DNA from: an uncultured Solibacteraceae bacterium
GTDB taxonomy: Bacteria > Acidobacteriota > Holophagae > Holophagales > Holophagaceae
DNA length: 26,972 nucleotides
Assembly: GCA_964415525.1 (NCBI GenBank)
Contig: CAYQAS010000057.1
Location: forward strand, 1-26,972
Reading direction: 5' to 3'
Part shown: piece after piece, positions 531 to 14,887 of the stretch
Layout: each line of letters opens with the position of its first letter
How positions within the stretch are numbered: position 1 is the stretch's first letter
Position numbers and translations under genes: made by a program
Notes under the pieces: generated by a model
Told to the model about the DNA's origin: nothing
Database searches by the model: none
Seen by the model: only the letters and a program-made list of their open reading frames with translations

Positions 531-937
531 GGCGGCTCCTCTGGCTGTTGGCGGGCTGCTTCTTCGTGGGGCTGGCAGCGGTGGGTGTGGTCTTGCCCCT
601 GCTTCCCACGACGCCCTTCCTCCTGCTTGCGGCAGCCTGCTTCGCCCGCAGCTCGGAGCGGCTTCACCGCTGGCTGCGGGAACAGCCCCGGTTCGGCGGG
701 ACGGTGAGGAATTGGCAGGACCACGGCGTGATTCCCCGTCGGGCCAAGGTGCTGGCGACGCTCCTCATCATCCTCAGCCTCGGGGCGATGCTGCTCCATG
801 GCAGGGTGCAGGGCTGGCTTTGGGTGCCGATCCTGGCACTGCTGGGGTGGGGGCTTTCCTTCATCTGGAGTCGGCCAGACGCACCGACGGCCCCCGGTGA
901 GAGGGCCGTCGGGGAGTGCGGGCCGCCTACTTCTTGA
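527..937 (+). CDS. ybaN: YbaN/DUF454-family inner-membrane protein
   Basis: The protein starting MRRLLWLLAGCFFVGLAAVGVVLPLLPTTPFLLLAAACFARSS..RLHRWL..P.FG..VRNWQ..GVIP.RAK matches the DUF454 signature. It has two hydrophobic helices. Its ATG overlaps the upstream stop, which suggests translational coupling. Confidence 0.6.
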   Translation: MRRLLWLLAGCFFVGLAAVGVVLPLLPTTPFLLLAAACFARSSERLHRWLREQPRFGGTVRNWQDHGVIPRRAKVLATLLIILSLGAMLLHGRVQGWLWVPILALLGWGLSFIWSRPDAPTAPGERAVGECGPPTS

Positions 938-1664
938 GCAGCGCCTGGATCTCGGCGGGCGCGTCGAAGGTACTCTTCTCGATGGGCTTGTTCCACTCCA
1001 CGCTGGTGAAGGTGATCGTGAAGGTCTGGCCCGCGGCGTTGTTCACCATGGTGTGAGGCATGAGTACGTCGCCCGCCTTCTTGTAGTCCTTGGAGACCAT
1101 CTCCATGGGCATCTCACCCATGGCGGTCACCAGCTTGGTGGTCACTTTAACTAGGAAGCCTGTCTTGACGCTGTAGTAATGGGTCGCGGGCTCGCCCTTG
1201 TGGGGGGTGGCCAGCACCTTGTAGCAGGGTTCCCCTTCCACGGTTTCGGTGGCCTGGGTCTGGACGCTCTTGTAGACCTCGCGCCAGTTCTCAGCGTGGA
1301 AGAATGCCTCGCGCTCGGCGGCGATCTTCTCTGCACCCTGTTTTACCTGGGGTCCCTGCATGGGGTTGATGCCCCAGGCGTTCTTGCCGTCGAAGCCTTC
1401 GCGGATCTTGCCCATGTTTGGGATATCAACCTCGGAAAGGGTGAGGTTGGGCTCAGCCCGGTAGACGGTCATGGTGGCCTTGAGGCCCGCGGCGGGCATC
1501 TCGAAGGTGCCCTTGATGATCGCGGACTTTTTTGCCGCGAGGGTGGCCTTGCCGCCCGTGACTTCGATGGAGCGGTCGAGGATGGTCTCGGCCTTGGGAA
1601 GGGCCTGTGCCGCGAGCATGGCGGGAACGGCGAGGGAGAGCAGTGCGATTCGTGTGAAGGACAT
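927..1664 (-). CDS. Secreted LolA-like protein (outer-membrane-lipoprotein-sorting-like fold) with an N-terminal signal peptide
   Basis: The signal peptide is MSFTRIALLSLAVPAMLAAQA. The C-terminal pattern GEPCYKVL..P........YY....TGFLVK.........TFTITFTSVEWNKPI..STFD is typical of LolA_like/DUF-type proteins. An AGGAG RBS lies 7 nt upstream. The gene starts 15 nt downstream of the S41 gene, so the two are probably an operon. Confidence 0.5.
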   Translation of the reverse strand: MSFTRIALLSLAVPAMLAAQALPKAETILDRSIEVTGGKATLAAKKSAIIKGTFEMPAAGLKATMTVYRAEPNLTLSEVDIPNMGKIREGFDGKNAWGINPMQGPQVKQGAEKIAAEREAFFHAENWREVYKSVQTQATETVEGEPCYKVLATPHKGEPATHYYSVKTGFLVKVTTKLVTAMGEMPMEMVSKDYKKAGDVLMPHTMVNNAAGQTFTITFTSVEWNKPIEKSTFDAPAEIQALLKK

Positions 1665-1679
1665 GGAAGCTCCTGTGAG

Positions 1680-2951
1680 TTACTTGGTGGATTGGCGGAT
1701 CCAGGCGACGGCCTGATCCAGGATGGGATCCTGCCCTGCGAGGAGGGCGGACTGCGTGGGGACGATGACTTCATCCGGCGTCACCCCAAGGCCTTCCAGG
1801 GGCTTGCCGCCGTGGGAGATGTAGTTGGCGATGACGTATTGGAAGCCGTCGCCATTGGGGAGGCGTTCGAACATGGAGGGCAGGGCCGCACCGGCGGAGC
1901 GCGTGCCGAAGACTCGGGCTCGCTTGATGTCCTGCATGCCGCCCGCGAAGATCTCGCTGGTGGAGCCGGAACAGCCGTCGACGAGGATCGCCACGGGGCC
2001 GTCGAAGGGGGTGGGACGCGGGAAGACGACGAATTTCAAGGCCGATCCGCGCAGGGTCATGGTGCCCAGCTTGAGGCCCGTCTCACTTGTGAACCAGCCT
2101 GCAGCGCCCATGGCCATGCCACCGATGCCCCCGGGATTGCCGCGCAGGTCGAGGACGAAACCCCTGGCGGGGCCGCCTTCCGTCAAGGCTGCGCGGAAGC
2201 CGTCTGCCACGGTCTCTGGATCCATCCACATGCTGAATCGCAGAACTCGCACGTCTGCAGGAAGGCTCTTGCGCTCCAGCCAGAAGGGCATGGGCGGCAT
2301 GTTGCCAAAGGTGACCAGACGGCCCTTGGGCTCGGTGCGCCCCAGTTTCACCGGGACGATGGCCTTGCCGTTGTGGAATTCGACATCGACGGTTTCCGCG
2401 ACCTGGCCGTCCAGCAGCCCTCCCAGGCGGCGGCTGAGGATGAGGTCGTGCTGGGTGGAATCCTTGAATGCCCCACTCAGCTTCTGGAAGAGGGGCGCCA
2501 CCTCACGGCCGGAGACGCGCACCAACTCCCAGCCCGGTTTGATGCCAGCCTTGGCGGCGGGGGAGCTTGGCTCCACTTCCGTCACGATGGCCTTGCCCGC
2601 GAGAGGGCGCAGTTCAAGGCCAGGGGTGCCGCTCTCCTTCGCGCCGCTCTGAAGATCCGCGTAGACCTCTGCCGGGACGATGCCGAAGTGGGTCTGTTTC
2701 AGGCGCCCCAACATGTCCCCGAGGAGGGCGCGGATCTCGCCCACGCTGGCGGCCTTTTCAACCTTGGGCTTAAATTCGTCATGGACCTTCTGCCAGTCGA
2801 GTCCACCCAACGTCGGATCCCAGTGGCGCTTGGCGACGGTGGACCAGACCTGTTCGAAGGACTGGAGATGCAGGGCTCGTTGCTCGGAGGTCAGACCTGT
2901 GGGTGGGGCCGCGACCAGCATGGCGGGAAGCAGGAATGGCAGGAGGCGCAT
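1680..2951 (-). CDS. ctpA: S41-family C-terminal processing peptidase (CtpA/Prc-like)
   Basis: Hallmark S41 motifs are present: DLRGNPGG and GSTSEIFAGGMQD (the catalytic Ser region) plus the Lys region. I chose the start at M60 of the track ORF (ATG at 2951). That start gives a signal peptide MRLLPFLLPAMLVAAP, has an AGGA RBS, and avoids overlapping sppA. Confidence 0.8.
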   Translation of the reverse strand: MRLLPFLLPAMLVAAPPTGLTSEQRALHLQSFEQVWSTVAKRHWDPTLGGLDWQKVHDEFKPKVEKAASVGEIRALLGDMLGRLKQTHFGIVPAEVYADLQSGAKESGTPGLELRPLAGKAIVTEVEPSSPAAKAGIKPGWELVRVSGREVAPLFQKLSGAFKDSTQHDLILSRRLGGLLDGQVAETVDVEFHNGKAIVPVKLGRTEPKGRLVTFGNMPPMPFWLERKSLPADVRVLRFSMWMDPETVADGFRAALTEGGPARGFVLDLRGNPGGIGGMAMGAAGWFTSETGLKLGTMTLRGSALKFVVFPRPTPFDGPVAILVDGCSGSTSEIFAGGMQDIKRARVFGTRSAGAALPSMFERLPNGDGFQYVIANYISHGGKPLEGLGVTPDEVIVPTQSALLAGQDPILDQAVAWIRQSTK

Positions 2952-3142
2952 GGGGGATCCTTTGCTCGGAACGGATACCAGCCTTCCATCCCTGGTGTCC
3001 GAGCGGGGTATTTCCAGGCCGACGGTGGAGTTCCTGGGACGAATGGTCGATCCTCGCCGAGCAGCGGTGACGGCATCCCGGCGGGTGGGGACGAGAGGTG
3101 AGCGCCGTGTGTCACCATGAGGATCCATTCAGGAGCACTGAT

Positions 3143-4930
3143 ATGAGGGACTTCCTCAAGAGCCTGCTGGCGTCCATGGTGGCGCTTGCCCTGTTCAGTG
3201 GCGCCGCGCTGCTGCTCTTCTTCGTCTTCATGGCGGCCATGACCCCCGCGGCGCCGACGGTGCCCGATCGGGCCGTACTGGTGCTGGACCTGTCTCAGCC
3301 CATTCCCGATGCCGCCCAGGATGGCGGTCCCCAGGAAGCCCTCCAGCGCGCCCTCTCCGGCGGAGGGGAGGCGGGTACGCCCCTGCCTCTGCTGCTGAAT
3401 ACCCTGGAGCGCGCGGCCAAGGACAAGCACATCGCCGCCCTCTATCTGACAGGCAATGTCCAGAGTTCCGGGTACGCCAGTGGACCCGCGGCCCTCAAGG
3501 AGCTGCGTGAGGCCCTCCAGCGGTTCAAACAGGAGAGCGGCAAGCCGGTGGTTGCCTATAACGAGGCCTACGGGAAGAGCGATCTCTACCTCTGCGGCGG
3601 CGCCTCCACGGTCTACCTGCATCCGAGCGGTGAAGTGGACGTCACGGGACTTGCCGCCGAGCCCATGTTCTTCGGGGGACTGTTCAAAAAATACGGCGTC
3701 GAAGTCCAGGTGACCCGTGTGGGCAAGTTCAAGAGTGCGGTGGAGCCCTACATCCTCGAGAAGATGAGCGATGCCAACCGCGAGCAGATGCAGTCCTTCC
3801 TCGGTGACATCTGGAGCGAGTGGAAGGCTGGCGTGGCCGCCGACCGCAAGAAGCTGCCAGAGGATCTCCAGACCCTTGCGGACCAGAAGGGCACGCTGCT
3901 CTCCCAGGAGGCCCTCCAGGCGGGTCTCGTGGACAAACTGGCGAATCCGGACGAGGTGCTGGACGAACTGAAGCGGCTTTCCGGCAAACAGGCCAAGGAT
4001 CGGGAGTTCCCCCAGATCACGCTGGAGACTTACGCGAAGATCGGCGGCGACAGCTCCAAGGGACGCAACCGCATCGCCGTCGTATACGCCGAAGGCGACA
4101 TCGTGGATGGGGAGGGCGACGGCAACCAGGTCGGCGGGGAGCGTCTCAGCCGGGAGCTGCGTCGCCTGCGTCTCGACACAAGCATCAAGGCCGTCGTCCT
4201 TCGGGTGAACAGCCCCGGCGGCAGCGCCATCGCCTCGGAGCTCATCCAGCGTGAAGTGATCCTCACCAAGGCCGTGAAACCCGTCGTGGTCTCCATGGGC
4301 TACCTCGCCGCGAGCGGCGGCTATTGGATCAGCACCTACGGCAGCCGCATCTTCGCCGAGCCCAACACCATCACCGGCTCCATTGGCGTCTTCGGCATGA
4401 TGCCGAACGTCAAGAAGCTGGCCAATGAACACGGTCTGACTTGGGACAACGTCCAGACTGCGCGGCTGGCCTCTCCGGGCATTGGGCGGCCCCGCACCGC
4501 CGACGAGCTGGCCCGCATACAGGTGCTGGTGGATGATGTCTACGACCAGTTCCTCCGGCGTGTCTCCGACAGCCGTAAGATGACCAAGGAGGCGGTGCAC
4601 GAAGTGGCCCAGGGGCGCGTCTGGTCTGGTCAGGCGGCGCTGAAGCTCGGTCTGGTGGACGAGATGGGCGGGCTGAAGGACGCCATCCGCCATGCCGCCA
4701 AGCTGGCCAAGATCGAGAACGATTACCGGGTGGATACCCCTGATCCCGCCAAGCAGGGCCTCGAGAAGGTGCTGAGTCTCCTGGGGGACAAGGACAAGCG
4801 GAAACTCACTCGCACCGGGTTGGCGGGCGACGTGAAGAACGAGTTTGATCGGGTGTTCCGTGCCCTCTCCGCCCTCAACGATCCCCGCGGGATCTACGCG
4901 CGCATGCCCATGGATCTGGTGATCCGGTAG
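3143..4930 (+). CDS. sppA: Signal peptide peptidase SppA (protease IV), 67K type with two S49 domains
   Basis: There is an N-terminal TM segment followed by a tandem S49 architecture (..VVYAEGDIVDGEG.., ..SMGYLAASGGYWIS.., ..TGSIGVFG..). The start is placed at ATG 3143, which has an AGGAG RBS 8 nt upstream. Confidence 0.85.
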   Translation: MRDFLKSLLASMVALALFSGAALLLFFVFMAAMTPAAPTVPDRAVLVLDLSQPIPDAAQDGGPQEALQRALSGGGEAGTPLPLLLNTLERAAKDKHIAALYLTGNVQSSGYASGPAALKELREALQRFKQESGKPVVAYNEAYGKSDLYLCGGASTVYLHPSGEVDVTGLAAEPMFFGGLFKKYGVEVQVTRVGKFKSAVEPYILEKMSDANREQMQSFLGDIWSEWKAGVAADRKKLPEDLQTLADQKGTLLSQEALQAGLVDKLANPDEVLDELKRLSGKQAKDREFPQITLETYAKIGGDSSKGRNRIAVVYAEGDIVDGEGDGNQVGGERLSRELRRLRLDTSIKAVVLRVNSPGGSAIASELIQREVILTKAVKPVVVSMGYLAASGGYWISTYGSRIFAEPNTITGSIGVFGMMPNVKKLANEHGLTWDNVQTARLASPGIGRPRTADELARIQVLVDDVYDQFLRRVSDSRKMTKEAVHEVAQGRVWSGQAALKLGLVDEMGGLKDAIRHAAKLAKIENDYRVDTPDPAKQGLEKVLSLLGDKDKRKLTRTGLAGDVKNEFDRVFRALSALNDPRGIYARMPMDLVIR

Positions 4931-4948
4931 GTGCGTTTCTCACTGACG

Positions 4949-4980
4949 GAAGCGGCGCCCTCGGGCGCCGCTTCTGTTTC
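4949..4980. terminator. Bidirectional intrinsic terminator between the convergent sppA (+) and hemD (-) genes
   Basis: GAAGCGGCGCCC-tc-GGGCGCCGCTTC forms a perfect GC-rich stem. It is followed by TGTTTC on the + strand. Confidence 0.6.
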
Positions 4981-5623
4981 AGATTTGAGCCCGTGAAAGC
5001 AGGGCTTTCAGTGCACCCGGTCGAGGTTCGCACCAGTCCGTGGCGGGGGTGCCACCGCGGGCGAAAGCGTCCGCGGTGCGGGCGCCCCACGCGAAGCGCA
5101 GGAGGGCCTTCGCACGGATGGCCAGGAGTTCCGCCTGCATGGGGCCGAGGGCGAGGACGGCATCCAGGTTCGTGAGGTCTGGGAAGGGCACCGTGGCCAC
5201 TTCCCGGTGCGTGATCCAGGGGTGAATCCGCCAGGGACTGTCCGCAGCTACGTGCTCCAAGAATTCCCGGCTACGCTCGCCGCGCACCAGCAGAATGTGG
5301 CCGCCCTGCGGTCGAAGCCGTTGCAGGGTCTTCCAGAGGCCTTCCGCATCTGGCGTCTCTGGAAGATCCACGCGGCGGCTGCCGTTCTCCAGCGGGCGGG
5401 CCGTGGCCTCTCCGGTGGCGATGCAGGGCAGGGCGGGATCCAGTGTCACGGTACGGGCGGCGGCGGGAGAAAGCACGATGGCGAGGTCTGCCGTTGGACA
5501 GGGATTGTCCTCTTCGGTCCGCTCGAAGGTGGTGAAGGGGCAGCTCACCGGTTCCCAGCCCGCCTCGGCGACCGCTGCGAACAGCGCGTCTTCGGGGTTC
5601 CGGGCGAGACCGAGGCGTTTCAC
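4979..5623 (-). CDS. hemD: Uroporphyrinogen-III synthase (HemD/HEM4 family)
   Basis: The ~214-aa size fits HemD, with weak HEM4-like similarity. It sits immediately downstream of hemC with an ATGA overlap, which is the classic hemCD arrangement. Confidence 0.6.
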   Translation of the reverse strand: MKRLGLARNPEDALFAAVAEAGWEPVSCPFTTFERTEEDNPCPTADLAIVLSPAAARTVTLDPALPCIATGEATARPLENGSRRVDLPETPDAEGLWKTLQRLRPQGGHILLVRGERSREFLEHVAADSPWRIHPWITHREVATVPFPDLTNLDAVLALGPMQAELLAIRAKALLRFAWGARTADAFARGGTPATDWCEPRPGALKALLSRAQI

Positions 5624-6489
5624 CAGCCCATGCCCTGCAGCACGCGGGCGAGCACGTCGGCGTCGTCGCCCTCGGCCTCAGCCTCCCGCAGTCCATCGTC
5701 ACCCGCAAAGGCGGCCCGGAGGTGCATGGTGCCATCCTCCCGCAGGGTCGCCAGGGCGCCGAGGGGCTGCTGGCAGCCGCCGCCGATGCCCGCAAGCACG
5801 CCTCGCTCCAGCGCCACTCGACGGGCGGTGGCGGGATCGTGGAAGCCCTTGAGGATGTCGACGATGTCGGGGCGGTCCGAGCGGGTCTCCGCCAGCAGGG
5901 CGCCCTGGGCGGGTGCAGGCAGGAGTTCGTCCGGAGTGAGTGGGCGCACTTTCAGGCCGGAGAGGTCCAGGCCGAGGCGGCCGAGGCCCGCGGCGGCCAG
6001 GATGGTGGCGTGGAGCGGTGCGTCCCGAAGGATGCCATCCCGCACCCGCTGGAGGCGCGTGGGCACATTGCCGCGGATCCAGGTGAACGAGGCCTTGGGG
6101 AAAGCGCGCTCCAGGAAGCGGCGGCGGCGTTCGGCGCTGGTGCCGATGACCGGCGCATCGGGTGCGTCCTGCCGCATGACGAGCAGATCCACGGGGTTTT
6201 CGCGCACGGGCACGCAGGCGGTGACGATGCCCGCGGGGCGCTCAAGGGCAACGTCCTTGAAGCTGTGGATGAGCAGATCCACCTCACCCACGTTGAGGGC
6301 GTCTTCCAGCTCGCGGGTGAAGAAGCCAGTGCCCGTGGACTTGTCCAGCGGTCCCGCCAGCCAGGCATCGCCGCTGGTGGTGAACTTCCGCCATTCGAGT
6401 TCCACGCCCTGGTCGGCGAGAAAGGCCACCATGGCTTCCGCCTGCTTGATCGCGAGCTCGGAGCCCCGGGTTCCCACGACGATCTTCAC
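5620..6489 (-). CDS. hemC: Hydroxymethylbilane synthase (porphobilinogen deaminase)
   Basis: The sequence VKIVVGTRGSELAIKQAE...GDAWLAGPLDKSTGTGFFTRELEDAL..VDLLIHSFKDV is HemC-like. I placed a GTG start at 6489 that overlaps the hemA TGA (GTGA). The Arg/Pro-rich N-terminal extension in the track ORF is discarded because it overlaps hemA. Confidence 0.8.
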   Translation of the reverse strand: MKIVVGTRGSELAIKQAEAMVAFLADQGVELEWRKFTTSGDAWLAGPLDKSTGTGFFTRELEDALNVGEVDLLIHSFKDVALERPAGIVTACVPVRENPVDLLVMRQDAPDAPVIGTSAERRRRFLERAFPKASFTWIRGNVPTRLQRVRDGILRDAPLHATILAAAGLGRLGLDLSGLKVRPLTPDELLPAPAQGALLAETRSDRPDIVDILKGFHDPATARRVALERGVLAGIGGGCQQPLGALATLREDGTMHLRAAFAGDDGLREAEAEGDDADVLARVLQGMGW

Positions 6490-7607
6490 AGGGACCCCTG
6501 GTTGAGGGCGCGGAAGGCCAGGGTTCGGCCCCGCTTGAGTACGCCCTGGAGGGCTTCGAGGGCCGGGGCGTCCAGCTTGGCGAGCAGGGTTCCGGGGGCC
6601 AGGGCGTCCTGCTCCAGCTGGTCCCAGGCCTCGGTCAGCTTCTGTTGCACCGTCTTCATCTGGGACTTCTGGGAGCGCTCCTCGCCCCGTTTGCGCAGCC
6701 GGGTGACGGCCTGGAGGAGGTGCGGTTCGGCCTGATCCGCGGCGGCACGGCGCTGGACCTTGGCGGCCTCCGTCTCGGCCAGGAAGGCTTCCAGTCCGAT
6801 GCGGTGCACCCAAGGCAGCGTTTCCAGGGCCGGCTCGGTATCCGGGGGCAAAGCGAGATCGAGGACGCGCATGTGGTGGTGGCGCTGAATGTGGCTCCAG
6901 GCGTCCAGGGTGAAGAGCGGGCGGTGGCTGGCAGTGGCGCTCACCAGGGCGTCGAAGTGGCCGGGATCCCGCTGAAGTTGCCCCAGGGGCACGACAGGAT
7001 GGCCCAGGGCCTCGGCCTTGGAGAGGGTCCGATTGGACATTGTCACCTGGTAGCCCCGCTCCGGCAGCCGCTCCGCGAGGTACTGGGTCATGGGACCGAC
7101 GCCCACGAGCACGACCTTGGCGCCCGGCTTGAGGGCCTGCTCCAGGTGGCGCAGGGCAGCGGTGGCGACACTGGCGGATCCGTCGGCCAGACCGAGCCTG
7201 GAGCGCATGCGCTGGGCTTCTCGAAGGATGTCGTCCAGGTACGCGGTGGCCTCATCCCCGGCGGTGTTGCAGTTCTTGCCTTCTTCCAGACTCGTGCGCA
7301 GCTGGCCCACGATTTCGCGGTCGCCCAGATTCGCGCTGACGAGGCCCGTGGCCACCTCCAGCATGTAGCGCCAACCGGCTTCACCCTCGTAGCGGGCAAC
7401 TTCCTGGTTGAGGCCCATGACCTCGGGATTGCCCCCCCAGAGCACCCAGATGGTGCGCTGGCAGGTGGCCATGTAGAGCATCTCGGCGCAGCCGGTCATG
7501 CGCTTCCAAAGGATCAGGTGATCCGCCAGGTGATCGCGCACGACGTGACGGGCCACGATCTCAAGATCGTGACGGGGGGCGTGGAAGCTGTAGACGACGG
7601 GATCCAT
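6486..7607 (-). CDS. hemA: Glutamyl-tRNA reductase
   Basis: GluTR features are present: the conserved catalytic Cys region (..MATCQRTIWVLWG..) and an NADPH-binding GxGxxG (VVLVGVGPMTQ). The start is placed at MDPVVYSF (ATG 7607), which has a GAGG RBS. Confidence 0.85.
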   Translation of the reverse strand: MDPVVYSFHAPRHDLEIVARHVVRDHLADHLILWKRMTGCAEMLYMATCQRTIWVLWGGNPEVMGLNQEVARYEGEAGWRYMLEVATGLVSANLGDREIVGQLRTSLEEGKNCNTAGDEATAYLDDILREAQRMRSRLGLADGSASVATAALRHLEQALKPGAKVVLVGVGPMTQYLAERLPERGYQVTMSNRTLSKAEALGHPVVPLGQLQRDPGHFDALVSATASHRPLFTLDAWSHIQRHHHMRVLDLALPPDTEPALETLPWVHRIGLEAFLAETEAAKVQRRAAADQAEPHLLQAVTRLRKRGEERSQKSQMKTVQQKLTEAWDQLEQDALAPGTLLAKLDAPALEALQGVLKRGRTLAFRALNQGSL

Positions 7608-7804
7608 AGACCTCAGGGACCTTGGGAATTCAAGACCAGCGTATCGGAAAGTTCCAGCGTGTTGACTCGGATGCTGCCAGGGGCGGATATGCACCGTGAC
7701 GGTGGTCAAATGCTGTCGGGGATGACCATGTCATCGCTCATGAAGGGATTCGAGTTGAATTTCTCGTGGATGCAGCATGGATATGAATGCTGGCTTATGG
7801 AAAT

Positions 7805-7833
7805 GCGGTCCGCATGGATCAGATGCGGGCCGC
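7805..7833 (-). terminator. Putative intrinsic terminator downstream of the M14 peptidase gene. It lies within the hemA upstream region.
   Basis: The 11-bp stem GCGGTCCGCAT/ATGCGGGCCGC has one G-T wobble. On the minus strand it is followed by ATTTCCAT, a weak U-tract. Confidence 0.35.
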
Positions 7834-7866
7834 AAATTAATTCAGGCGGATACGGTTCTCGGCGTT

Positions 7867-10431
7867 CTACGGTTCCTGGGCTGCCCAGTGCAGGGCGTTC
7901 CAGAGGAGCTTGAAGGTGCCGTCCGTCTGGGCGCGGTGCTGCACGGCGAAGCCGAAGAGAACCACCTTGCCCTTGCCGACCTCGAACGCGGCGGCGGCGG
8001 ACTTGCGCTCCAGCTGCTCGGCGCCTTTCAAATAGCCGGAGAGCAGGATGTCCCGGGCGTCTTCGGGATAGTGGGCGAGGACCGTTCGGGTGGTGTCAGG
8101 CCGGGAGGGGCTGGTCTGGAAGGCGATGCGGCTGTTCAGGAAGGCGGCGGTCTGCGGAGGCATGCCCCAGGTCACGGGATGGGAGGGCGCCACATGGACG
8201 CGCACCAGGGTGCCAGGGGCATTGAAACCTTCGGCGTCATTGGTGCGGGCCATCTCGTTTCGCGGCGTGGCCAGGGTGTTGCGGACCGGCAGGCTGAATT
8301 CCTCAATGACGAGGTCGGAGCTGGCCCCGAGGGCGACCACGGTGCCTCCGGCTTCCACGAACGCCTTGATGGCCTTGAGGCCTTCCTTGCCCATGCCGCC
8401 CGCATATTCGGCGGGGGCATCTTGGGCGCTACGGCCTTCGAGGATGGCGGACTTGGCCTGGTTGGCCAGGACGAGCACGTCCAGCCGATCCCGAAGCTTG
8501 CCCGCCTTGATCGCCTTGTTGTCGAGGCTCTCCGGCGCGAAGCCCGCCTGATCCAGCACGAAGCGCGTCCAGCCCTCATCCATGGAGGCACTGAAGGACT
8601 TGTAGAGGCCGACGCGAACGGGTTTCTGGACGGCTGTGGCAGCCTTCGGGGGCCTCGTCAGGGCCTGGGGCGCGAGACCATGGCGCTCCACCAGGGCCTT
8701 CAGCTCGGCGGTGGGTTCCAGGAGCAGGGTGCCAGCCTCATGGTGTCGACTACCGTCTTCAAAGGCATCCAGGCTCACCGTCGCCTTGCCCCCGGCCTTC
8801 AGATAGGCGTTCAGGAAGGGCGTCACGGCGTTGCTGGCGCGGTCCAGGGCATAGACCTTGGCACCCGGTTCCAGGTGGCTGACCGGTCCATCTTCGGATT
8901 TGGCAGGGCGCAAACGCTTGGCCGCGGCGTCATCCAACTGCACCGTCTGGACGTCCACACCCATGTGGAGCGGCAGGTTCCAGGCCGTCACGTCATAGGG
9001 AGCCAGGGTCGCGGCGCCGGACTGGAGGCTCACCTCTGGGTAGCGGTTGACGGTGAAAATTTCCCGCACGAAGCGGCCAAAGGGCTGGGCGGTGGGGATG
9101 AACCACGCCCGTTCGGGATCGCTCCATCGGACCTCGACACCGTGGGTTTCTAGCAGGTGCGCCAGTTTGGCCGCACTGGCGGGATCCCGCTGCTCGGATG
9201 CGATTCGCCACCAGCGGTCGGGGCTTCCCTGGGCGATGCTGTCCTCCGCCATCTGGACCTTGGACTTCAACAGGTCTGCCCGGCGCTCCGCCGCCATCTC
9301 CAGCAGGCCGTCCGAGAGGATCCGCTCGTAGTCCATGATGTCCCGCAGGCGCCAGGTGCCGCCCTTCCAGGGGTTCGGGAAGTTCACCTGGGCCTGGTAT
9401 TCCGTGAGGCCCTTGCCCATCCCGGAGAGTTCCGTGGGGTGCACGTCGATGGGCGTGGCGACACGCACACTGGCCATTTCCGAAAGGATGCCCACGGTGT
9501 TCTTGAACCACGCGGTGTTCTTGGTGCCACCGGGCCAATAGGCATCAAAGCTGAAGCCATAGCCCACGCCCGCCTTGCCCTCCTGCTCCAGGCGCAGGGC
9601 CATGAAGGAGGACAGCTGGTCGATCTGGCGCCACACGAGGGGATGGACCACGGGGCTCGCGGGGTTGGTGTAGGGCGGAATGAAGAGGCGTGGTCCCGTG
9701 GAGCCCATCTGGTGTTCGTCGAGCCAGACCTGGGGATGCCACGTCCGATAGACGGCCCGGCTCATCGCCTGGCTCTCCTTCTGAGTGAGGTTCACCCAGT
9801 CGCGGTTGTTGTCGTGGCCCACATACCAGTGATAGAGCCACGGCATGCGGCCGCCCTCGAAGGGCGTGCCGAGCTGCTTGCGGTACCAGTCCACCTCCAT
9901 GTCGTGACCGTCGGGATTGAGGCTGGGCACCAGCAGGAGGATGACGTCGTCGAGGCGCCGCTTCGTTTCCGCGTCCTGCCCCGTGGCGAGGGCGTGGGCC
10001 CATTCCATGGCCATCTGGCTGGAACCGATCTCGCTGGAGTGGATGGCGCAGGTTACCAGTACGACCGCCTTGCCCTCCTTCACCAGCTTGGCCTTTTCCG
10101 CGGCATCAAGCCCCCGGGGATCGGCCAGCTTCCGGGCGATCTCCTGGTAACGGGCCTTCTGCTTCAGGTTCTCGGGGCTGGAGATCACTGCCATCAGCAG
10201 ATCGCGGCCCTGGGTGGTCTTGCCAAGGTTGTCGATTTCCACGCGGGAACTGCGTTTGGCCAGTTCCTGGAAGTAGCGCGTGATCTGTCCGTAGTCCGCC
10301 AGCACCCGGTCTGCGCCGACCTGGATCCCCAGGAACTGGGAGGGCCCGGGGACGGTCTGGGCTTGGAGGCTGACCAGCGCTGGGGCCGCGAGGGCCAGGG
10401 CCAGGGCCAGGGATGGTAGGACGCGGGGCAT
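7867..10431 (-). CDS. Secreted M14-family zinc carboxypeptidase with a large C-terminal extension (probably DJ-1/PfpI-like), 854 aa
   Basis: The signal peptide is MPRVLPSLALALALAAPALVSLQAQ. M14 motifs are present (HSSE.., NPDG, H..NNRDW) and the C-terminal region contains ..FVEAGGTVVALG... A GGAGG RBS is present. Confidence 0.8.
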   Translation of the reverse strand: MPRVLPSLALALALAAPALVSLQAQTVPGPSQFLGIQVGADRVLADYGQITRYFQELAKRSSRVEIDNLGKTTQGRDLLMAVISSPENLKQKARYQEIARKLADPRGLDAAEKAKLVKEGKAVVLVTCAIHSSEIGSSQMAMEWAHALATGQDAETKRRLDDVILLLVPSLNPDGHDMEVDWYRKQLGTPFEGGRMPWLYHWYVGHDNNRDWVNLTQKESQAMSRAVYRTWHPQVWLDEHQMGSTGPRLFIPPYTNPASPVVHPLVWRQIDQLSSFMALRLEQEGKAGVGYGFSFDAYWPGGTKNTAWFKNTVGILSEMASVRVATPIDVHPTELSGMGKGLTEYQAQVNFPNPWKGGTWRLRDIMDYERILSDGLLEMAAERRADLLKSKVQMAEDSIAQGSPDRWWRIASEQRDPASAAKLAHLLETHGVEVRWSDPERAWFIPTAQPFGRFVREIFTVNRYPEVSLQSGAATLAPYDVTAWNLPLHMGVDVQTVQLDDAAAKRLRPAKSEDGPVSHLEPGAKVYALDRASNAVTPFLNAYLKAGGKATVSLDAFEDGSRHHEAGTLLLEPTAELKALVERHGLAPQALTRPPKAATAVQKPVRVGLYKSFSASMDEGWTRFVLDQAGFAPESLDNKAIKAGKLRDRLDVLVLANQAKSAILEGRSAQDAPAEYAGGMGKEGLKAIKAFVEAGGTVVALGASSDLVIEEFSLPVRNTLATPRNEMARTNDAEGFNAPGTLVRVHVAPSHPVTWGMPPQTAAFLNSRIAFQTSPSRPDTTRTVLAHYPEDARDILLSGYLKGAEQLERKSAAAAFEVGKGKVVLFGFAVQHRAQTDGTFKLLWNALHWAAQEP

Positions 10432-10625: not shown

Positions 10626-12950
10626 ATGGAACCCCAGCCTCACCTGATCCTCTACGGAATCGGCGGCCTTGTGCTGCTGACCATCCTCCTCAAGTCCTTC
10701 ACCATCGCCCGAGGCAACCAGATCATCCTGCTGGAGCGCCGCTGGTTCGGAAAGCAGATGCCCGATGGCCGCACCGTCGCGCTGAGCAACGAAGTCGGCG
10801 TTCAGGCCCGGGTGCTCGGCCCCGGCTTCCACCTCCTGTTCCCCTTCATCTACCGCGTGATGAAGAAGGATTTCTGCGTCATCCAGGAGAACAAGGTGGG
10901 CGTGGTGCGCGCCGTGGCCGGAGCGCCGATCCCCAGTGGACAGTTCATGGCCAAGGCCGTGGAGTGCGACCTCTTCCAGGACGGCGAGGCCTTCCTCCGC
11001 AACGGCGGCGAGAAGGGGCCGCAGCTGGGGATCCTCCCGGAAGGCGAATACAAGATCAATCCGCATCTCTTCGAAGTGGAAATGGTCGACGCCACGATGA
11101 TTCACGACGACGAAGTGGGTACGGTGGAGTCCATCGCGGGCCAGCCCGTGACGCGGGAAGGCGGCAACTTCGGGTCTCCCGTGCCCTGTGACAGTTTCCA
11201 GGATGCCCAGGCCTTCATCCGCAACGGCGGCCAGAAGGGCCCCCAGATCGCCTTCCTGCAGCCGGGCTACTACCGCATCAATACGCTGATGTTCAAGGTC
11301 CAGAAGCGGCCCATCACCCGCATTCCCGGCGGCAAGATGGGGCTCGTGGAGGCCGCGGACGGTGGTCGCGTACCGGACGGTCGTCTGTTGGCGGCGAAGG
11401 TGCCGGGCCACGGCAATTTCTTTGACGGTCAGGCCTTCATCCAGAACGGCGGCGAGCGGGGGCGGCAGCTGGAAGTGCTGATGCCCGGTGTCTACCGCCT
11501 GAATCCCGTGCTCTTCAAGGTGATTGACATCGTGGACTGGACCCACATCGGGCCGGACGAGGTGGGCATCGTCACCATCAACGAGGGCCGGCCCATCGTG
11601 GATCCCTCCAAGATCGCGGCCGAGGAACTGCCTCTCGACACCCACGACAACTTCCAGAATGCTGACGCGTTCCTGAAGGCCGGTGGTCAGAAGGGTCTGC
11701 AGATCCCAGTCCTGCGCGCCGGCAACTATGCCGTCAATCCTTGGTTCGCCAGCATCGAGCGGGTGGACATGATCCGCGTGGACATCGGGAACTGCGGCGT
11801 GGTGACGAGCTACGTGGGCGGCGAAGGCGCCGACCTCACGGATGACGCGGTGAATGCCAAGATCGTGGCCAACGGCAGCAAGGGCATCTGGGCCGACCCG
11901 CTCCAGCCCGGCAAACACCCACTGAATACCAAGATCTGCAAGGTGGACATCGTGCCCACCACCCAGATCCTCCTGAACTGGGCGGACAACCGTTCCAGCG
12001 CCCACGAGCTGGACTCCAACCTCAAGACCATCACCCTGCGCACCGCCGACGCCTTCAACGTGAACATGGACGTGAGCGTCATCATCCACATCCCCATGAA
12101 GAACGCCCCCAAGGTGATCGCCAACCTCGGCACCGTGCGCAACATGATCAGCCAGGTGCTGGAACCCGCCATCAGCAGCCACTTCCGCAACTCTGCCCAG
12201 TACATCCAGGCCCTCGACCTCTACACCCAGCGCCGGGAGCTGCAGGACAAGGCCAAGCAGCACATCGACGCGGTGCTGCGGGTGCACCACATCGACTCCA
12301 AGGACACGCTCATCGCGGATGTCGTGCTACCGCCTGAGCTGACGAAGACCGTGACTGACCGTCAGATTGCGGAGCAGGAGAAGAAGACCTTCGCGACGCA
12401 GAAGGAGGCCCAGGATGAGCGGCGCAACCTGGAGAACGCCAAGGCCCAGGCCAACATGCAGCCGAAGGTGGTGGAATCGGAGCGGAACGTCGAGATCCAG
12501 AAGAACCTGGCCGAAGGCCGGATCAAGGAGGCTGAAGGCTCCAAGCAGGCGGCCATCCTGATGGCGGAAGGCCAAGCCACCGCCGTGAAGCTGGAAGCGG
12601 GCGGCAAGGCCGAGGCCACCAAGGTCAACGCCGATGCGGATTCCCTGGCCATTCAGAAGGTGGGCACCGCCGAGGCAGAGATCATCCTGGCCAAGGGCAC
12701 CAGCACCGCGGAGGCCTACAAGCTGGAGGTGGCTGCCATGGGTCGCGACGTCTTCGGCCAGATCCGCGTCATCGATAAGATCGCCGGCAGCGACCTGAAG
12801 CTGATCCCCGACAACCTGATCCTCGGTGGCGGCGGTTCGGGCAGCGATGGCGCGGGCCTCATGAACGGCCTTTTCGGCATCGCCCTGCTGGAGAAGCTCA
12901 CGGGACGCACCTTCGCCGTTCACGAGACGACGGAAGCTCCCAAGGCCTGA
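10626..12950 (+). CDS. Flotillin/SPFH (band-7) family membrane-microdomain protein, 774 aa, with an internal tandem-repeat expansion and a C-terminal EA-rich coiled coil
   Basis: It has an N-terminal hydrophobic hairpin (LILYGIGGLVLLTILL) and an SPFH core (..TLRTADAFNVNMDVSVIIHI..). The coiled coil carries AEAE/EA repeats typical of flotillins (KVGTAEAEIILAKGTSTAEAYKLE). Five to six repeats of a ~75-aa module map to nt ~10971-11966. Confidence 0.8.
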   Translation: MEPQPHLILYGIGGLVLLTILLKSFTIARGNQIILLERRWFGKQMPDGRTVALSNEVGVQARVLGPGFHLLFPFIYRVMKKDFCVIQENKVGVVRAVAGAPIPSGQFMAKAVECDLFQDGEAFLRNGGEKGPQLGILPEGEYKINPHLFEVEMVDATMIHDDEVGTVESIAGQPVTREGGNFGSPVPCDSFQDAQAFIRNGGQKGPQIAFLQPGYYRINTLMFKVQKRPITRIPGGKMGLVEAADGGRVPDGRLLAAKVPGHGNFFDGQAFIQNGGERGRQLEVLMPGVYRLNPVLFKVIDIVDWTHIGPDEVGIVTINEGRPIVDPSKIAAEELPLDTHDNFQNADAFLKAGGQKGLQIPVLRAGNYAVNPWFASIERVDMIRVDIGNCGVVTSYVGGEGADLTDDAVNAKIVANGSKGIWADPLQPGKHPLNTKICKVDIVPTTQILLNWADNRSSAHELDSNLKTITLRTADAFNVNMDVSVIIHIPMKNAPKVIANLGTVRNMISQVLEPAISSHFRNSAQYIQALDLYTQRRELQDKAKQHIDAVLRVHHIDSKDTLIADVVLPPELTKTVTDRQIAEQEKKTFATQKEAQDERRNLENAKAQANMQPKVVESERNVEIQKNLAEGRIKEAEGSKQAAILMAEGQATAVKLEAGGKAEATKVNADADSLAIQKVGTAEAEIILAKGTSTAEAYKLEVAAMGRDVFGQIRVIDKIAGSDLKLIPDNLILGGGGSGSDGAGLMNGLFGIALLEKLTGRTFAVHETTEAPKA
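10971..11966 (+). repeat. Protein-level tandem repeats inside the flotillin gene: 5-6 copies of a ~75-aa module F-x-[DN]-x-x-A-F-[IL]-x-N-G-G-x-[KR]-G-x-Q...P-G-x-Y-x-[IL]-N-P-x-x-F-x-V
   Basis: Repeat cores read directly from the translation: FQDGEAFLRNGGEKGPQLGILPEGEYKINPHLFEV; FQDAQAFIRNGGQKGPQIAFLQPGYYRINTLMFKV; FFDGQAFIQNGGERGRQLEVLMPGVYRLNPVLFKV; FQNADAFLKAGGQKGLQIPVLRAGNYAVNPWFASI; and a degenerate NGSKGIWADPLQPGKHPLNTKICKV. Confidence 0.7.
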
Positions 12951-12961
12951 TTTGGGGCTTC

Positions 12962-13003
12962 ATGCAGAAAAGCCAGGACCTGCGGGTCCTGGCTTTTCTG
13001 CAT
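12962..13003. terminator. Strong hairpin between the convergent flotillin (+) and PilZ (-) genes, probably a bidirectional terminator
   Basis: ATGCAGAAAAGCCAGGAC-ctgcgg-GTCCTGGCTTTTCTGCAT forms a perfect 18-bp stem. A/T runs lie inside the stem rather than in a trailing U-tract. Confidence 0.5.
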
Positions 13004-13012
13004 GAGGGGCCG

Positions 13013-13378
13013 TCAGGCGTGCAGGGCGGGGTGCATCAGGCTCTGCACGAGGTGAGAGAGGCGTTCCTGAAAGTCAGAGGGGAGTTCCACGAACTCGAGG
13101 CCGATGGACACGGGATCGTGACCTGTGGTGTAGGCAATCCGGGCCTGGACGGGCTGGTGGGGCAGCATGGGGTGTTCCAGCACGAGGTGGTCCAGCAGGG
13201 TGGAGCGCTCCAGCACATCCATCAGCTGCAGCATCGCCTCTGGCGCCTGGAATCCGCATCCTCCCGCACCCAGCATGGTGACCGGCAGTCCGGTGAAACG
13301 GTGTCCGCCGAAGTGGAACCCGACCTGGATGTGGATCCCGGCCTCTGCGCGCGGGTACTTGCGGAACTCCTGAAGCAT
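13013..13378 (-). CDS. Single-domain PilZ (c-di-GMP-binding) protein, 121 aa
   Basis: An N-terminal RxxxR motif (FRKYPR) is followed by a hydrophobic beta region with a DxSxGG-like segment (PVTMLGAGGCGF). The C-terminus (GHDPVSIGLEFVELPSDFQERLSHLV) is PilZ-like. The amino-acid composition is protein-like rather than a GC-frame artefact. Confidence 0.5.
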   Translation of the reverse strand: MLQEFRKYPRAEAGIHIQVGFHFGGHRFTGLPVTMLGAGGCGFQAPEAMLQLMDVLERSTLLDHLVLEHPMLPHQPVQARIAYTTGHDPVSIGLEFVELPSDFQERLSHLVQSLMHPALHA

Positions 13379-13477
13379 CCGGGCCTCCTGTGCCGGTCAT
13401 TCTGCCCGCAGTTCGAGCCGTTCGCGACCGGCATCCTGCTCGAGGGGGTCTTGAAATTTCCGGGTCGAGATCCTCAG

Positions 13478-14887
13478 ATGGTTTTGAACCCTCCCCCCGG
13501 TGTCTGTTTGAACCTGCTCTCCACATTCGTCTTCGACACGGAAGGCCTCTCCCGGGCGACGCCGGAGGCCTTGGCAGAAGTCCAGCTGCGGCGGATCAAT
13601 GAGCTGGTGGCCTATGCGCGCCGCCACGCCCCATTCTACGAACGCCGGTATCGCGGTCTTCCCGAGGTCATCAGGGATGTTCGCGAGTTGCCACCTGTCA
13701 CCAAGCGGGAGCTGATGGCGAACTTCGACGAGGTGGTGACGGACCCTGCGGTGCGCGAGATCGAGGTGCGTCGGCATTTGGCAGACGTAACCCAGGTGGG
13801 ACATCCCTTCCTCGGGAAATACATGCTCTGGCGGAGCTCCGGCACCACAGGCTCGCCCTGTCTGACGTTGGCGGACTCCCATTGGGAAGCGGCCACCACC
13901 GCACTGAACGTGGTACGCCTCGCTCAGGCTTGGTACACGCCCGATGTCGTGCGCCGAATGCAGGCGCTGGGCGGGCTTCGGGTGTCCATCTTCACGGATA
14001 AGGCGCACTCCATGGGCGGGACGCAGCTCAGCCGCCAGCGCCGAACGAACCCGCAGACGGCGCGGTGCCTCCGCCTGGTTCCCATCACGCTCCCCATCCC
14101 GGAGATGGTAGAGACGCTGAATGAACTCCAGCCCGCCAGTCTCACCGGTTACGCCGCAGCCCTGGAGATCCTGGCGCTGGAGCAGTTGGCGGGTCGACTC
14201 TGCATCCGACCGGCTGTGGTGGTGAGTACAGGTGAGCTTTTACGGCCCCAAGCCAGGGCTCGCATGCTGGAAGCTTTCGGCATTCCGCCTCGCAACCTCT
14301 ACGGGACGACGGAGGCGGGGCTCATCGGCTACGAGTGTGCCTTGGGCCATCTGCACCTGAATGCCGACTGGACGCTCTTCGAGCCCGTGAGCGTGGCACA
14401 CCACCCCTCGGTATCTGGGGAGATGTCGGAGCGTGTGCTGGTCACCAACCTCGCCAACCGCATCCTTCCGGTGATCCGGTGCGAGCTGACAGATCGTGCC
14501 CGAATCCTGCCTGGGCGCTGCGCCTGTGGGCTCACACTGCCTCTGCTCGAGGTGTCAGGCCGCGCGGATGACATTCTCCTCGTTCCTGGGATTGCGGGCG
14601 GGCAGGTGCCCCTTCTGCCCCTGGCACTGGCGGCGGCGCTTCAGCAGACCCTCGGGATCGCCCGCTTCCAGGTGATCCAGACGGCGCCCGCGCAACTGCG
14701 CATCCGCCTGCTCCACCGGGATCCTGCGGAGGCCGATGCGAACTGGGCGGCTTCGGTTCGGAACATGCGGCAGATGCTGGAGGAGCATCGTGCTGCGCCC
14801 GTCGATTTGGTGCGGGCTGAGGAGCCCCCAGAGTGTGATCCCGTGAGTGGCAAGTTCCGGGAGGCCTGGTCGGTCCTCGTCCGCTGA
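13478..14887 (+). CDS. PaaK/coenzyme-F390-synthetase-like adenylate-forming enzyme (phenylacetate-CoA-ligase family)
   Basis: It has the WRSSGTTGSP P-loop motif and the YGTTE motif (NLYGTTEAG) of the PaaK/CapK/F390-synthetase family. I chose the start at ATG 13478, which is in frame with the track ORF and downstream of the PilZ gene. The upstream part of the track ORF overlaps the PilZ gene and is discarded. Confidence 0.7.
   Translation: MVLNPPPGVCLNLLSTFVFDTEGLSRATPEALAEVQLRRINELVAYARRHAPFYERRYRGLPEVIRDVRELPPVTKRELMANFDEVVTDPAVREIEVRRHLADVTQVGHPFLGKYMLWRSSGTTGSPCLTLADSHWEAATTALNVVRLAQAWYTPDVVRRMQALGGLRVSIFTDKAHSMGGTQLSRQRRTNPQTARCLRLVPITLPIPEMVETLNELQPASLTGYAAALEILALEQLAGRLCIRPAVVVSTGELLRPQARARMLEAFGIPPRNLYGTTEAGLIGYECALGHLHLNADWTLFEPVSVAHHPSVSGEMSERVLVTNLANRILPVIRCELTDRARILPGRCACGLTLPLLEVSGRADDILLVPGIAGGQVPLLPLALAAALQQTLGIARFQVIQTAPAQLRIRLLHRDPAEADANWAASVRNMRQMLEEHRAAPVDLVRAEEPPECDPVSGKFREAWSVLVR

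Follow-up and report, generated by a model that had tools for sequence, protein, structure and literature searches.

We analysed a contig of 26,972 nt (CAYQAS010000057.1, assembly GCA_964415525.1) from an uncultured Solibacteraceae bacterium, placed in the Holophagaceae (Acidobacteriota). This whole stretch is referred to as the window. We focused on one gene, which encodes an SPFH-domain protein of 774 amino acids (aa). The gene occupies exactly the open reading frame (ORF) at 10626..12950 on the forward strand, and its GC by codon position is what real genes show in this 65% GC sequence. Briefly, the protein consists of an N-terminal transmembrane (TM) helix, six small β-units (U0 to U5), an SPFH2 core, a long helical region and a C-terminal tail. 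The predicted fold uniquely resembles the Major Vault Protein (MVP). Features of the gene, its product and the two flanking ORFs are collected in Table 1.

Table 1. The SPFH gene, the parts of its product and the flanking ORFs. Nucleotide positions are those of the window. AF2, AlphaFold2; GC3, GC content at third codon positions.
Feature	Protein position (aa)	Nucleotide position	Strand	Evidence or remark
Complete SPFH gene, multi-repeat, TM-anchored	1-774	10626..12950	+	ORF; GC3 0.88; AAAGG 6-11 nt 5' of the ATG
N-terminal hydrophobic helix, membrane anchor	5-24	10638..10697	+	AF2 model; charge pattern
U0, short SPFH1-type β-unit directly after the TM helix, without the FQD...GGxKGxQ insertion	24-83	10695..10874	+	98.1% to repeat profile
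U1, long repeat unit 1	84-157	10875..11096	+	Motif, identity, profile and shuffle tests
U2, long repeat unit 2	158-231	11097..11318	+	Motif, identity, profile and shuffle tests
U3, long repeat unit 3	232-305	11319..11540	+	Motif, identity, profile and shuffle tests
U4, long repeat unit 4 (78 aa)	306-383	11541..11774	+	Motif, identity, profile and shuffle tests
U5, short unit, N-terminal β part (SPFH1) of Band_7	384-446	11775..11963	+	Band_7 start; 98.0% profile match
SPFH2 α/β core, equivalent to MVP 'shoulder'	447-569	11964..12332	+	Pfam; model; family conservation
Long A/E-rich helical region, equivalent to SPFH coiled coil or MVP cap-helix	570-721	12333..12788	+	AF2 model; composition
C-terminal tail: 'LKLIPDNLILGGGG', Gly-rich linker and short hydrophobic helix	722-774	12789..12947	+	AF2 model
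M14 carboxypeptidase, 854 aa		7867-10431	-	Upstream, divergent from SPFH gene
121-aa ORF, convergent with SPFH gene		13013-13378	-	GC3 0.82

The motif F-x-[DN]-x-x-A-F-x-x-[NA]-G-G-x-[KR]-G-x-Q is present four times (aa 117, 191, 265 and 343), the copies being 74, 74 and 78 residues apart. These copies mark U1 to U4, which are 74–78 aa long and share 35–45% pairwise identity over ~70 residues. An initial inspection of the letters (hereafter the sequence-only reading) had proposed at least four clear repeats plus one or two degenerate ones, arising by iteration of the SPFH N-terminal β-unit. Smith-Waterman scores between U1–U4 were 18–32 standard deviations above 500 shuffles, none of which reached them. 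An SPFH-core control segment scored at the shuffle mean. We also built profiles of each unit from 50–80 homologues and compared them using HHalign. U1–U4 matched each other with a probability of at least 99.8% (E 1e-30 to 1e-42). Both U0 (98.1%, E 7.5e-14) and U5 (98.0%, E 1.8e-13) matched the pooled U1–U4 profile, with 0.3% for the SPFH core control. The internal similarity is significant, and the two degenerate copies are U0 and U5. Because the Pfam Band_7 match starts at aa 414, at profile position 19, U5 is the SPFH domain's true N-terminal β part. The iteration proposal was borne out, since the repeat profile matches this start of Band_7. By these comparisons, the protein carries six homologous copies of the SPFH N-terminal β-unit.

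U1–U4 are 'long' units, having an inserted loop and short helix with F-Q-D-x-x-A-F-x-x-N-G-G-x-K-G-x-Q. In the AF2 model, the strands of U0 are at aa 25–28, 32–38, 58–64, 67–70 and 76–82. No Pfam or NCBIfam model covers aa 84–413. Similarly, Pfam left the repeat uncovered in the window protein, 39 diverse members of the wider repeat superfamily (described below) and four annotated relatives. Hence, the unit is not a named Pfam repeat. Weak summed Pfam matches to CshA_repeat occurred in 12 of the 39 members and were judged to be non-specific β-repeat similarity. At the DNA level the repeat signal is faint, with a 222-nt periodicity and 61–70% identity. The duplication is old because the DNA copies retain only this identity. 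Recent duplication was rejected on the same grounds, together with the position-by-position conservation of each unit among orthologues.

The G-G-x-[KR]-G-x-Q loop lies at aa 201–207, 275–281 and 353–359 (nt about 11226–11246, 11448–11468 and 11682–11702) and at the equivalent site in U1. The loop and the following G-x-Y-x-x-N are invariant or nearly so in all long units of 80 sequences, down to 28% identity. The loop is in neither MVP repeats nor ordinary SPFH1 domains. Candidate roles are a lattice contact or ligand binding.

C-terminal to the array, Pfam Band_7 (PF01145, clan CL0433) matches aa 414–596, spanning profile positions 19–173 with 89.2 bits against a cut-off of 23.6 bits. This domain is matched by 36 of the 39 diverse superfamily members. 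The SPFH2 core is the best-conserved segment (90.5% identity in the close family). In the AF2 model the following region folds as helices at aa 570–609, 616–705 and 707–721. It is rich in A, E, K and Q, with 14 EA/AE dipeptides compared to ~0.8 expected. Residues 723–745 of the tail have a predicted local distance difference test (pLDDT) score below 50 and are unstructured in the monomer model. The SPFH fold, long helix and preceding membrane element were confirmed by the AF2 model, by structural matches and by the TM helix. The latter is poorly conserved in sequence (25% identity) yet always present. In 86 homologues, the mean number of K+R per 15 residues is 0.09 before the TM helix and 2.33 after it. 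One homologue, with an extra upstream TM helix and a KK N-terminus, is consistent with the same orientation. From this charge pattern, the positive-inside rule predicts a cytoplasmic location for the repeats, the SPFH core and the helices. A cytoplasmic bulk also agrees with the cytoplasmic-type fusion partners (STAND, CHAT and PP2C) found in paralogues.

We predicted the structure with AlphaFold2, using an alignment of 80 sequences with 28–90% identity. The full-length model had a mean pLDDT of 82.8, with values above 90 throughout aa 84–400. Modelled alone, aa 80–400 had a pLDDT of 93.7 and a predicted TM-score (pTM) of 0.85. The sequence-only reading had suggested an extended, membrane-proximal β-scaffold. 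Such a scaffold is predicted with high confidence, the array lying next to the membrane anchor. The full model was compared with the PDB using Foldseek. The first twelve matches were all MVP (E 5e-17 to 2.5e-13, ~800–900 aligned columns), an architecture that the sequence-only reading had missed. Prohibitin (9e-11), erlin, stomatin, HflK/C, flotillin (2.7e-8) and QmcA ranked below, with E from 1e-10 to 1e-6. Fragments containing only R1–R7 of MVP also matched (E 3e-7 to 1.5e-6, TM-score 0.55–0.59).

Searching with the repeat array alone excludes the shoulder or helix as the driver of the match. The first 13 matches were again all MVP (E 6e-5 to 2e-3, probability 1.00). They were followed by just ~100-column matches, with E above 0.4, to N-terminal parts of erlin, HflC, stomatin and prohibitin. 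Approximately four consecutive repeats superpose on MVP at 3.2 Å. In the model, a single unit is an SPFH1 fold, and the predicted stacking of successive units matches the vault wall alone among solved structures. The predicted structure therefore has the MVP architecture: a stave of MVP-repeat-fold domains N-terminal to an SPFH-like shoulder and long cap helix.

The family is large. A search of 5.8 billion proteins gave 2,734 matches. The best 120 are ~765–830 aa long and 71–91% identical. They are named only 'SPFH domain-containing', 'PHB domain-containing' or 'uncharacterized membrane protein YqiK'. In species-representative genomes the closest copy is on a Holophaga chromosome assembled from a metagenome (91%). 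Orthologues with 52–90% identity occur in Geothrix, Mesoterricola, Thermoanaerobaculia, Anaeromyxobacteraceae, Polyangiaceae, many Verrucomicrobiota, Gammaproteobacteria and Oligoflexus. Others are found in Chitinophagales, Sphingobacteriales, Bacteroides and several lineages of Patescibacteria. The architecture is no one-off but a widespread and very conserved family, spanning at least six phyla (Acidobacteriota, Myxococcota, Verrucomicrobiota, Patescibacteria, Pseudomonadota and Bacteroidota). In the close family, identity is 74–90% for all segments, each repeat among them, apart from the TM helix and the C-terminal tail (56%). Among loci L001–L059, copies in Acidobacteriota, Myxococcota, Verrucomicrobiota, Gammaproteobacteria and Patescibacteria share 74–91% aa identity, a constraint of unusual strength for a 775-aa protein.

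The GC content of the gene tracks that of its flanks and host (0.40–0.69). Hence, the conservation reflects strong purifying selection on a long-resident gene, rather than mis-binning or very recent transfer. Contamination as a source of the cross-phylum identity was also rejected on the basis of one Patescibacteria copy. This copy is on a 225-kb contig with housekeeping genes, is flanked by opposite-strand genes and lies close to ftsZ, ftsA and hisS. The ranking of identities is incongruent with taxonomy; for the Holophagaceae query, Anaeromyxobacteraceae (82–86%) rank above Thermoanaerobaculia (79.6%). This incongruence suggests older horizontal transfer of the gene.

Among 1.84 billion representative proteins, the profile built from the four long units matched 1,241 at E≤1e-3 and 163 at E≤1e-30. 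We refer to these ~1,240 clusters at 50% identity, representing thousands of sequences, as the repeat superfamily. Each of the 1,241 proteins has 2–14 matched stretches, and lengths reach 1,802 aa. The best 150 have a constant order of hydrophobic N-terminus, U0-like segment, n repeats and SPFH core. Giant paralogues (P0121, P0122, P0123, P0141 and others) have up to 13–14 units; P0121 (1802 aa) has a VWA domain at aa 1594–1747. A C-terminal VWA domain is present in 17 of the 39 diverse members. Long paralogues often have this ending; those with names include proteins of the filamentous cyanobacteria Symploca and Caldora. PARP4, a partner of the eukaryotic vault, also has a VWA domain, which may be coincidence. 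A few paralogues are fused to nSTAND1, AAA_16 or AAA_35 NTPases, CHAT, PP2C, EAD11 or RTX repeats. Modules of this kind are characteristic of conflict or signalling systems.

Relatives are also encoded outside chromosomes. A Geomonas relative of about 835 aa is chromosomal. In contrast, those of Ralstonia (691 aa, three long repeats), Rhizobium (680 aa, two long repeats) and Clostridium perfringens (696 aa) are on a conjugative megaplasmid, a plasmid and a plasmid, respectively. Another, of 631 aa with two long repeats, is encoded by an uncultured megaphage (LR756502.1, 642 kb, positions 2815–4707). Hence, the repeat-SPFH module travels on mobile elements. The Ralstonia insidiosa copy is at 3803–5878 of plasmid pB1901 and that of C. 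perfringens at 2914–5004 of pJFP838A. Copies on Ralstonia megaplasmids adjoin a PRTRC/ThiF system.

The gene is monocistronic in the window. It diverges from the upstream M14 peptidase gene and converges with the small downstream minus-strand ORF. At ~55 loci in species-representative genomes, we clustered the ORFs lying up to 4.5 kb from the homologous gene. No shared neighbour was detected, except among five near-identical Verrucomicrobia. E. coli yqiK directly follows its NfeD-like partner yqiJ. There is no NfeD-like gene within the 27-kb window, and none adjoins the Ralstonia, Rhizobium or Clostridium relatives. The prediction of an orphan gene without an adjacent NfeD was correct. Across the window and the ~55 loci, the gene stands alone and has no dedicated partner. 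A promoter and terminator scan of the locus was uninformative.

Other genes in the window encode S41 and S49 peptidases, HemA, HemC, a YbaK-type editing domain, a TetR regulator, an iron alcohol dehydrogenase, a Ser/Thr kinase and a molybdopterin oxidoreductase. Positions 927–10431, upstream of the SPFH gene, hold a series of genes for the envelope and for protein turnover, broken by hemC and hemA. Its members encode a LolA-like protein, an S41 tail-specific-type peptidase with a PDZ domain, an S49 SppA-type signal-peptide peptidase (610 aa) and the M14 carboxypeptidase. S49/ClpP-type domains are found in long NfeD proteins. The S49 SppA gene here is 5.7 kb from the SPFH gene, is not kept beside homologues and has no NfeD domain match. 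The 121-aa ORF has no Pfam or PADLOC match. By eye, its N-terminal R-K-Y-P-R and later G-A-G-G-C-G-F may resemble PilZ c-di-GMP-binding motifs. A 641-aa ORF (12962–14887, forward strand) has no Pfam match at E≤1e-3. Over its N-terminal third, which is probably non-coding, it overlaps the minus-strand ORF. The C-terminal part contains 'SSGTTG', a motif typical of adenylate-forming (PaaK or F390-synthetase-like) enzymes.

On balance, we think that the gene product is probably a subunit of a membrane-anchored, vault-like SPFH cage. The proposal starts from what is established: domain composition, homology of U0–U5 to each other and to SPFH1, the predicted fold with its unique likeness to MVP, the topology signal, distribution and conservation. 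From these, and from relatives of solved structure, we infer oligomerisation into a cage, its dimensions and any cargo. The TM helix would anchor each subunit in the cytoplasmic membrane; most of the protein would be cytoplasmic, and the TM helices would form the rim. U0–U5 would stack end to end as a rigid stave or wall, like R1–R9 of MVP. U1–U4 carry the family-specific insertion with its invariant GG-x-K/R-G-x-Q loop. The SPFH2 core would act as the 'shoulder' of the cage. Above it, the ~150-aa A/E-rich helix would pack laterally with neighbouring subunits to form a dome, which the C-terminal tail would close as a plug. By analogy with other SPFH cages, the tail may be a cap-closing element that is ordered in the oligomer alone (PMC12915596).

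Many copies side by side would give a homo-oligomeric ring, or 'half-vault', on the cytoplasmic face of the membrane. A half-vault is proposed because the first repeat is held at the membrane by its N-terminus, whereas MVP half cages join at their N-terminal repeats. Compared with cages of the HflK/C or flotillin type, the wall would be ~10 nm taller, with the number of repeats (2–14 in the superfamily) determining its height. The uniform, very strong conservation of each unit fits a whole surface making lattice contacts. Most likely, the role is the generic SPFH one: to enclose and organise an area of membrane with the proteins in it and, in this case, a larger cytoplasmic volume.

Several observations weigh against a vault-like cage. 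Pfam Vault (PF01505), Vault_2/3/4 and MVP_shoulder (PF11978) match neither the window protein nor the 39 diverse members and four annotated relatives. Human MVP, the positive control, strongly matches all five models. In all, Pfam Vault recognised none of the 43 superfamily members, and none of them has a name related to MVP. For HHalign we used a shallow MVP profile of tetrapods only (Neff 1.8), retrieved with a bait sequence (100% to the human/chimpanzee cluster). Against this profile the repeat unit scored 0.3% and the repeat array 0.2%. The full-length protein scored an ambiguous 60% (E 8.6e-5, 632 columns), probably carried by the shoulder and helix. The MVP-like stave could thus be a parallel amplification of SPFH1. 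In addition, the cage is an extrapolation from relatives, and gene context lends function no support, there being no conserved neighbour at the loci compared. The predicted topology has the positive-inside rule as its single basis. Inter-domain geometry in AF2 monomer models can be unreliable, although the pTM of the array argues that it is defined here.

A profile of the family did not find MVP among all PDB sequences. Together with the Vault-model results and the unit and array scores below 1%, this rejects membership of MVP at the sequence level. The pattern G-x-x-x-L-x-x-x-PG-x-Y-x-P/N...V-x-V is in register with 'GDEWLFEGPGTYIP..VEVVE' of MVP in the HHalign alignment, a likeness with no statistical support. 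We conclude that the window protein is built like MVP and probably works like it, yet lies outside the curated MVP family.

Other interpretations must be weighed against the cage. The sequence-only reading had called the protein a flotillin. In that case it would be an ordinary FloT/YqiK-type scaffold with a lineage-specific spacer, and its likeness to MVP would be trivial since every SPFH1 is 'MVP-repeat-like'. Like FloT and YqiK, the protein has an N-terminal membrane anchor, an SPFH domain that is predicted to be cytoplasmic and a long coiled coil rich in A and E. It is also ~220–265 aa longer than E. coli YqiK (553 aa), close to the estimated excess of about 250 aa over typical flotillins. 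Many homologues are named 'YqiK' by JGI, and the Rhizobium relative is a 'flotillin family protein' according to PGAP. However, the family assignment did not stand. NCBIfam FloT (NF058507) scored 10.9 bits against a cut-off of 700 bits, and Pfam Flot gave no match at E≤1. In the profile search of PDB sequences, the matches were prohibitin-2 (5e-8), QmcA (3e-6), stomatin, flotillin-2 (1.4e-3) and HflC. The SPFH core is closest in sequence to prohibitin, QmcA and stomatin. Among the Foldseek matches, flotillin comes after MVP, prohibitin, erlin, stomatin and HflK/C. In the match to the YqiK coiled coil (HHalign 47.6%), similar composition cannot be told apart from homology. E. coli YqiK has no significant match to the repeat unit, and the resemblance of the 10-residue QAFIRNGGQK to YqiK QAFVRTGLGGQK is not significant (HHalign 0.4%). 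The only flotillin-like feature is the A/E-rich coiled coil, and its resemblance to flotillin or YqiK is weak. Flotillins have a single SPFH1 unit, compared to six here, and an adjacent NfeD gene (partners YuaF or YqiJ), which was seen at no locus examined. Unlike a passive spacer, the repeats are as conserved as the core. Given the curated models and the lack of the unit in true E. coli YqiK, we reject flotillin membership and consider the flotillin-plus-spacer explanation quite unlikely.

Nor do we give much credence to a β-array that forms no cage. Such an array would be an extended stalk, or a rod like that of an adhesin, and might be extracytoplasmic. It would hold the SPFH/coiled-coil head at a distance from the membrane, as a spacer or tether, or would bind a repeated ligand via its invariant GGxKGxQ loops. 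The weak matches to CshA_repeat, a surface adhesin repeat, point this way, as do the invariant loop in each long unit and the VWA domains, often extracellular, that end many long paralogues. Conversely, the positive-inside signal predicts a cytoplasmic bulk, and some paralogues are fused to cytoplasmic modules. The vault wall is the sole structural analogue of the array, and all SPFH and coiled-coil proteins of solved assembly are rings or cages (PMC13100048). Less likely still is a mobile conflict or defence module of the membrane, such as an abortive-infection or membrane-integrity sensor or effector, spread horizontally. The high identity (60–90%) across at least six phyla with incongruent ranking speaks for it. 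So do relatives on conjugative megaplasmids (beside the PRTRC system in Ralstonia), a C. perfringens plasmid and a megaphage, and paralogues fused to nSTAND1, AAA_16/35, CHAT and EAD11. However, no PADLOC family matches the window protein, P0121 or P0124, and the assignment to a defence system was dropped. There is also no conserved partner gene. Moreover, the chromosomal contexts are housekeeping ones (ftsZ/ftsA/hisS in Patescibacteria; heme biosynthesis and peptidase genes in the window), and GC ameliorated to each host indicates a long-term resident. A defence role concerns biological function and is compatible with the cage mechanism.

If the protein assembles as predicted, it offers a bacterial model for building vault-like walls and tuning their height, and a concrete intermediate for the origin of the vault. 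We think it unlikely, but worth stating, that the family is the prokaryotic stock or surviving sister of the eukaryotic vault. The free vault would then have arisen by loss of the TM anchor and N-terminal dimerisation, from half-vaults with height set by repeat number. Vault origin and vault-like wall mechanics would become experimentally tractable in bacteria. Extreme conservation without a partner gene implies an important self-contained function. The repeat family is not rare, yet bears generic annotation alone. Cultured hosts of relatives (Geomonas, Ralstonia, Rhizobium and C. perfringens) make experiments feasible; protein accessions include WP_224962355 (Geomonas subterranea), UNK03869 (Ralstonia insidiosa) and WSH04760 (Rhizobium).

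How does the window protein compare to known systems? Every structurally characterised SPFH protein builds a half cage bound to a membrane, and in MVP two half cages meet at their N-terminal repeats (PMC13100048, PMC12915596). Vault research of 2025–2026 has come to regard MVP as a derived SPFH protein, with R1–R9 homologous to SPFH1 and the shoulder equivalent to SPFH2 (PMC12915596). In ECOD, the N-terminal portion of ordinary archaeal SPFH proteins is placed under 'MVP repeat' (PMC13607799). A 2026 paper contrasted vaults with SPFH proteins on TM anchoring and described MVP domains as unique to vaults (PMC13100048). HflK/C, QmcA, prohibitin, stomatin and erlin share with the window protein a TM anchor, SPFH1, SPFH2, coiled coil and C-terminal cap. 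They differ in having a single SPFH1 instead of six, and their helices are far shorter. HflK/C and QmcA also face the periplasm and have FtsH or NfeD partners, whereas the window protein is predicted to be cytoplasmic and stands alone.

Multi-repeat MVP-like proteins of prokaryotes are already known. For a few bacterial band-7 proteins, threading as MVP has been reported (Daly et al. 2013, PMC3762200; Sokolskyi 2019, bioRxiv 10.1101/872010). Published bacterial 'MVP-like' proteins include H6L4P8, A9AUD4, H8MNI3, A6FXM1 and MCI7444589. Homologues of MVP have been described in phages (bioRxiv 10.1101/2023.11.10.566534) and, with five repeats, in Asgard archaea (PMC12962969). At ~800 aa, the published examples resemble the window protein in having N-terminal repeats, a shoulder like band 7 and a coiled coil. 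For some, the only annotation is 'band 7 protein', and the phage-borne forms have a counterpart in our megaphage relative. They were found via similarity to MVP and are described with no membrane anchor; it is by these descriptions alone that we set them apart. We found no literature description of a TM-anchored multi-repeat MVP-like form. Likewise, we found none of a repeat with the invariant GGxKGxQ insertion, of its breadth (~1,240 clusters, 2–14 copies, VWA- and STAND-fused giants) or of its conservation across phyla.

MVP itself (PDB 4V60, 3GF5, 9MXV and others) has the same order of tandem small SPFH1-type β-domains, SPFH2 'shoulder', very long helix and short cap-forming tail. An unusual degree of conservation is common to both. 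MVP has nine repeats of ~55 aa. The window protein has six units, and the long ones, of 74–78 aa, have the extra loop and short helix carrying FQDxxAFxxNGGxKGxQ. It is also bacterial, with an SPFH2 core of the prohibitin, stomatin and QmcA type in sequence. MVP is soluble and uses its N-terminus to dimerise two half-vaults; here, a conserved TM helix directly precedes the first unit. The step from SPFH1 to a tandem stave is visible in sequence because comparison still reveals homology between the repeats and the SPFH1 of the same protein. The family thus unites a TM anchor, as in other SPFH proteins, with a predicted tandem stave of SPFH1/MVP-type domains, as in the vault.

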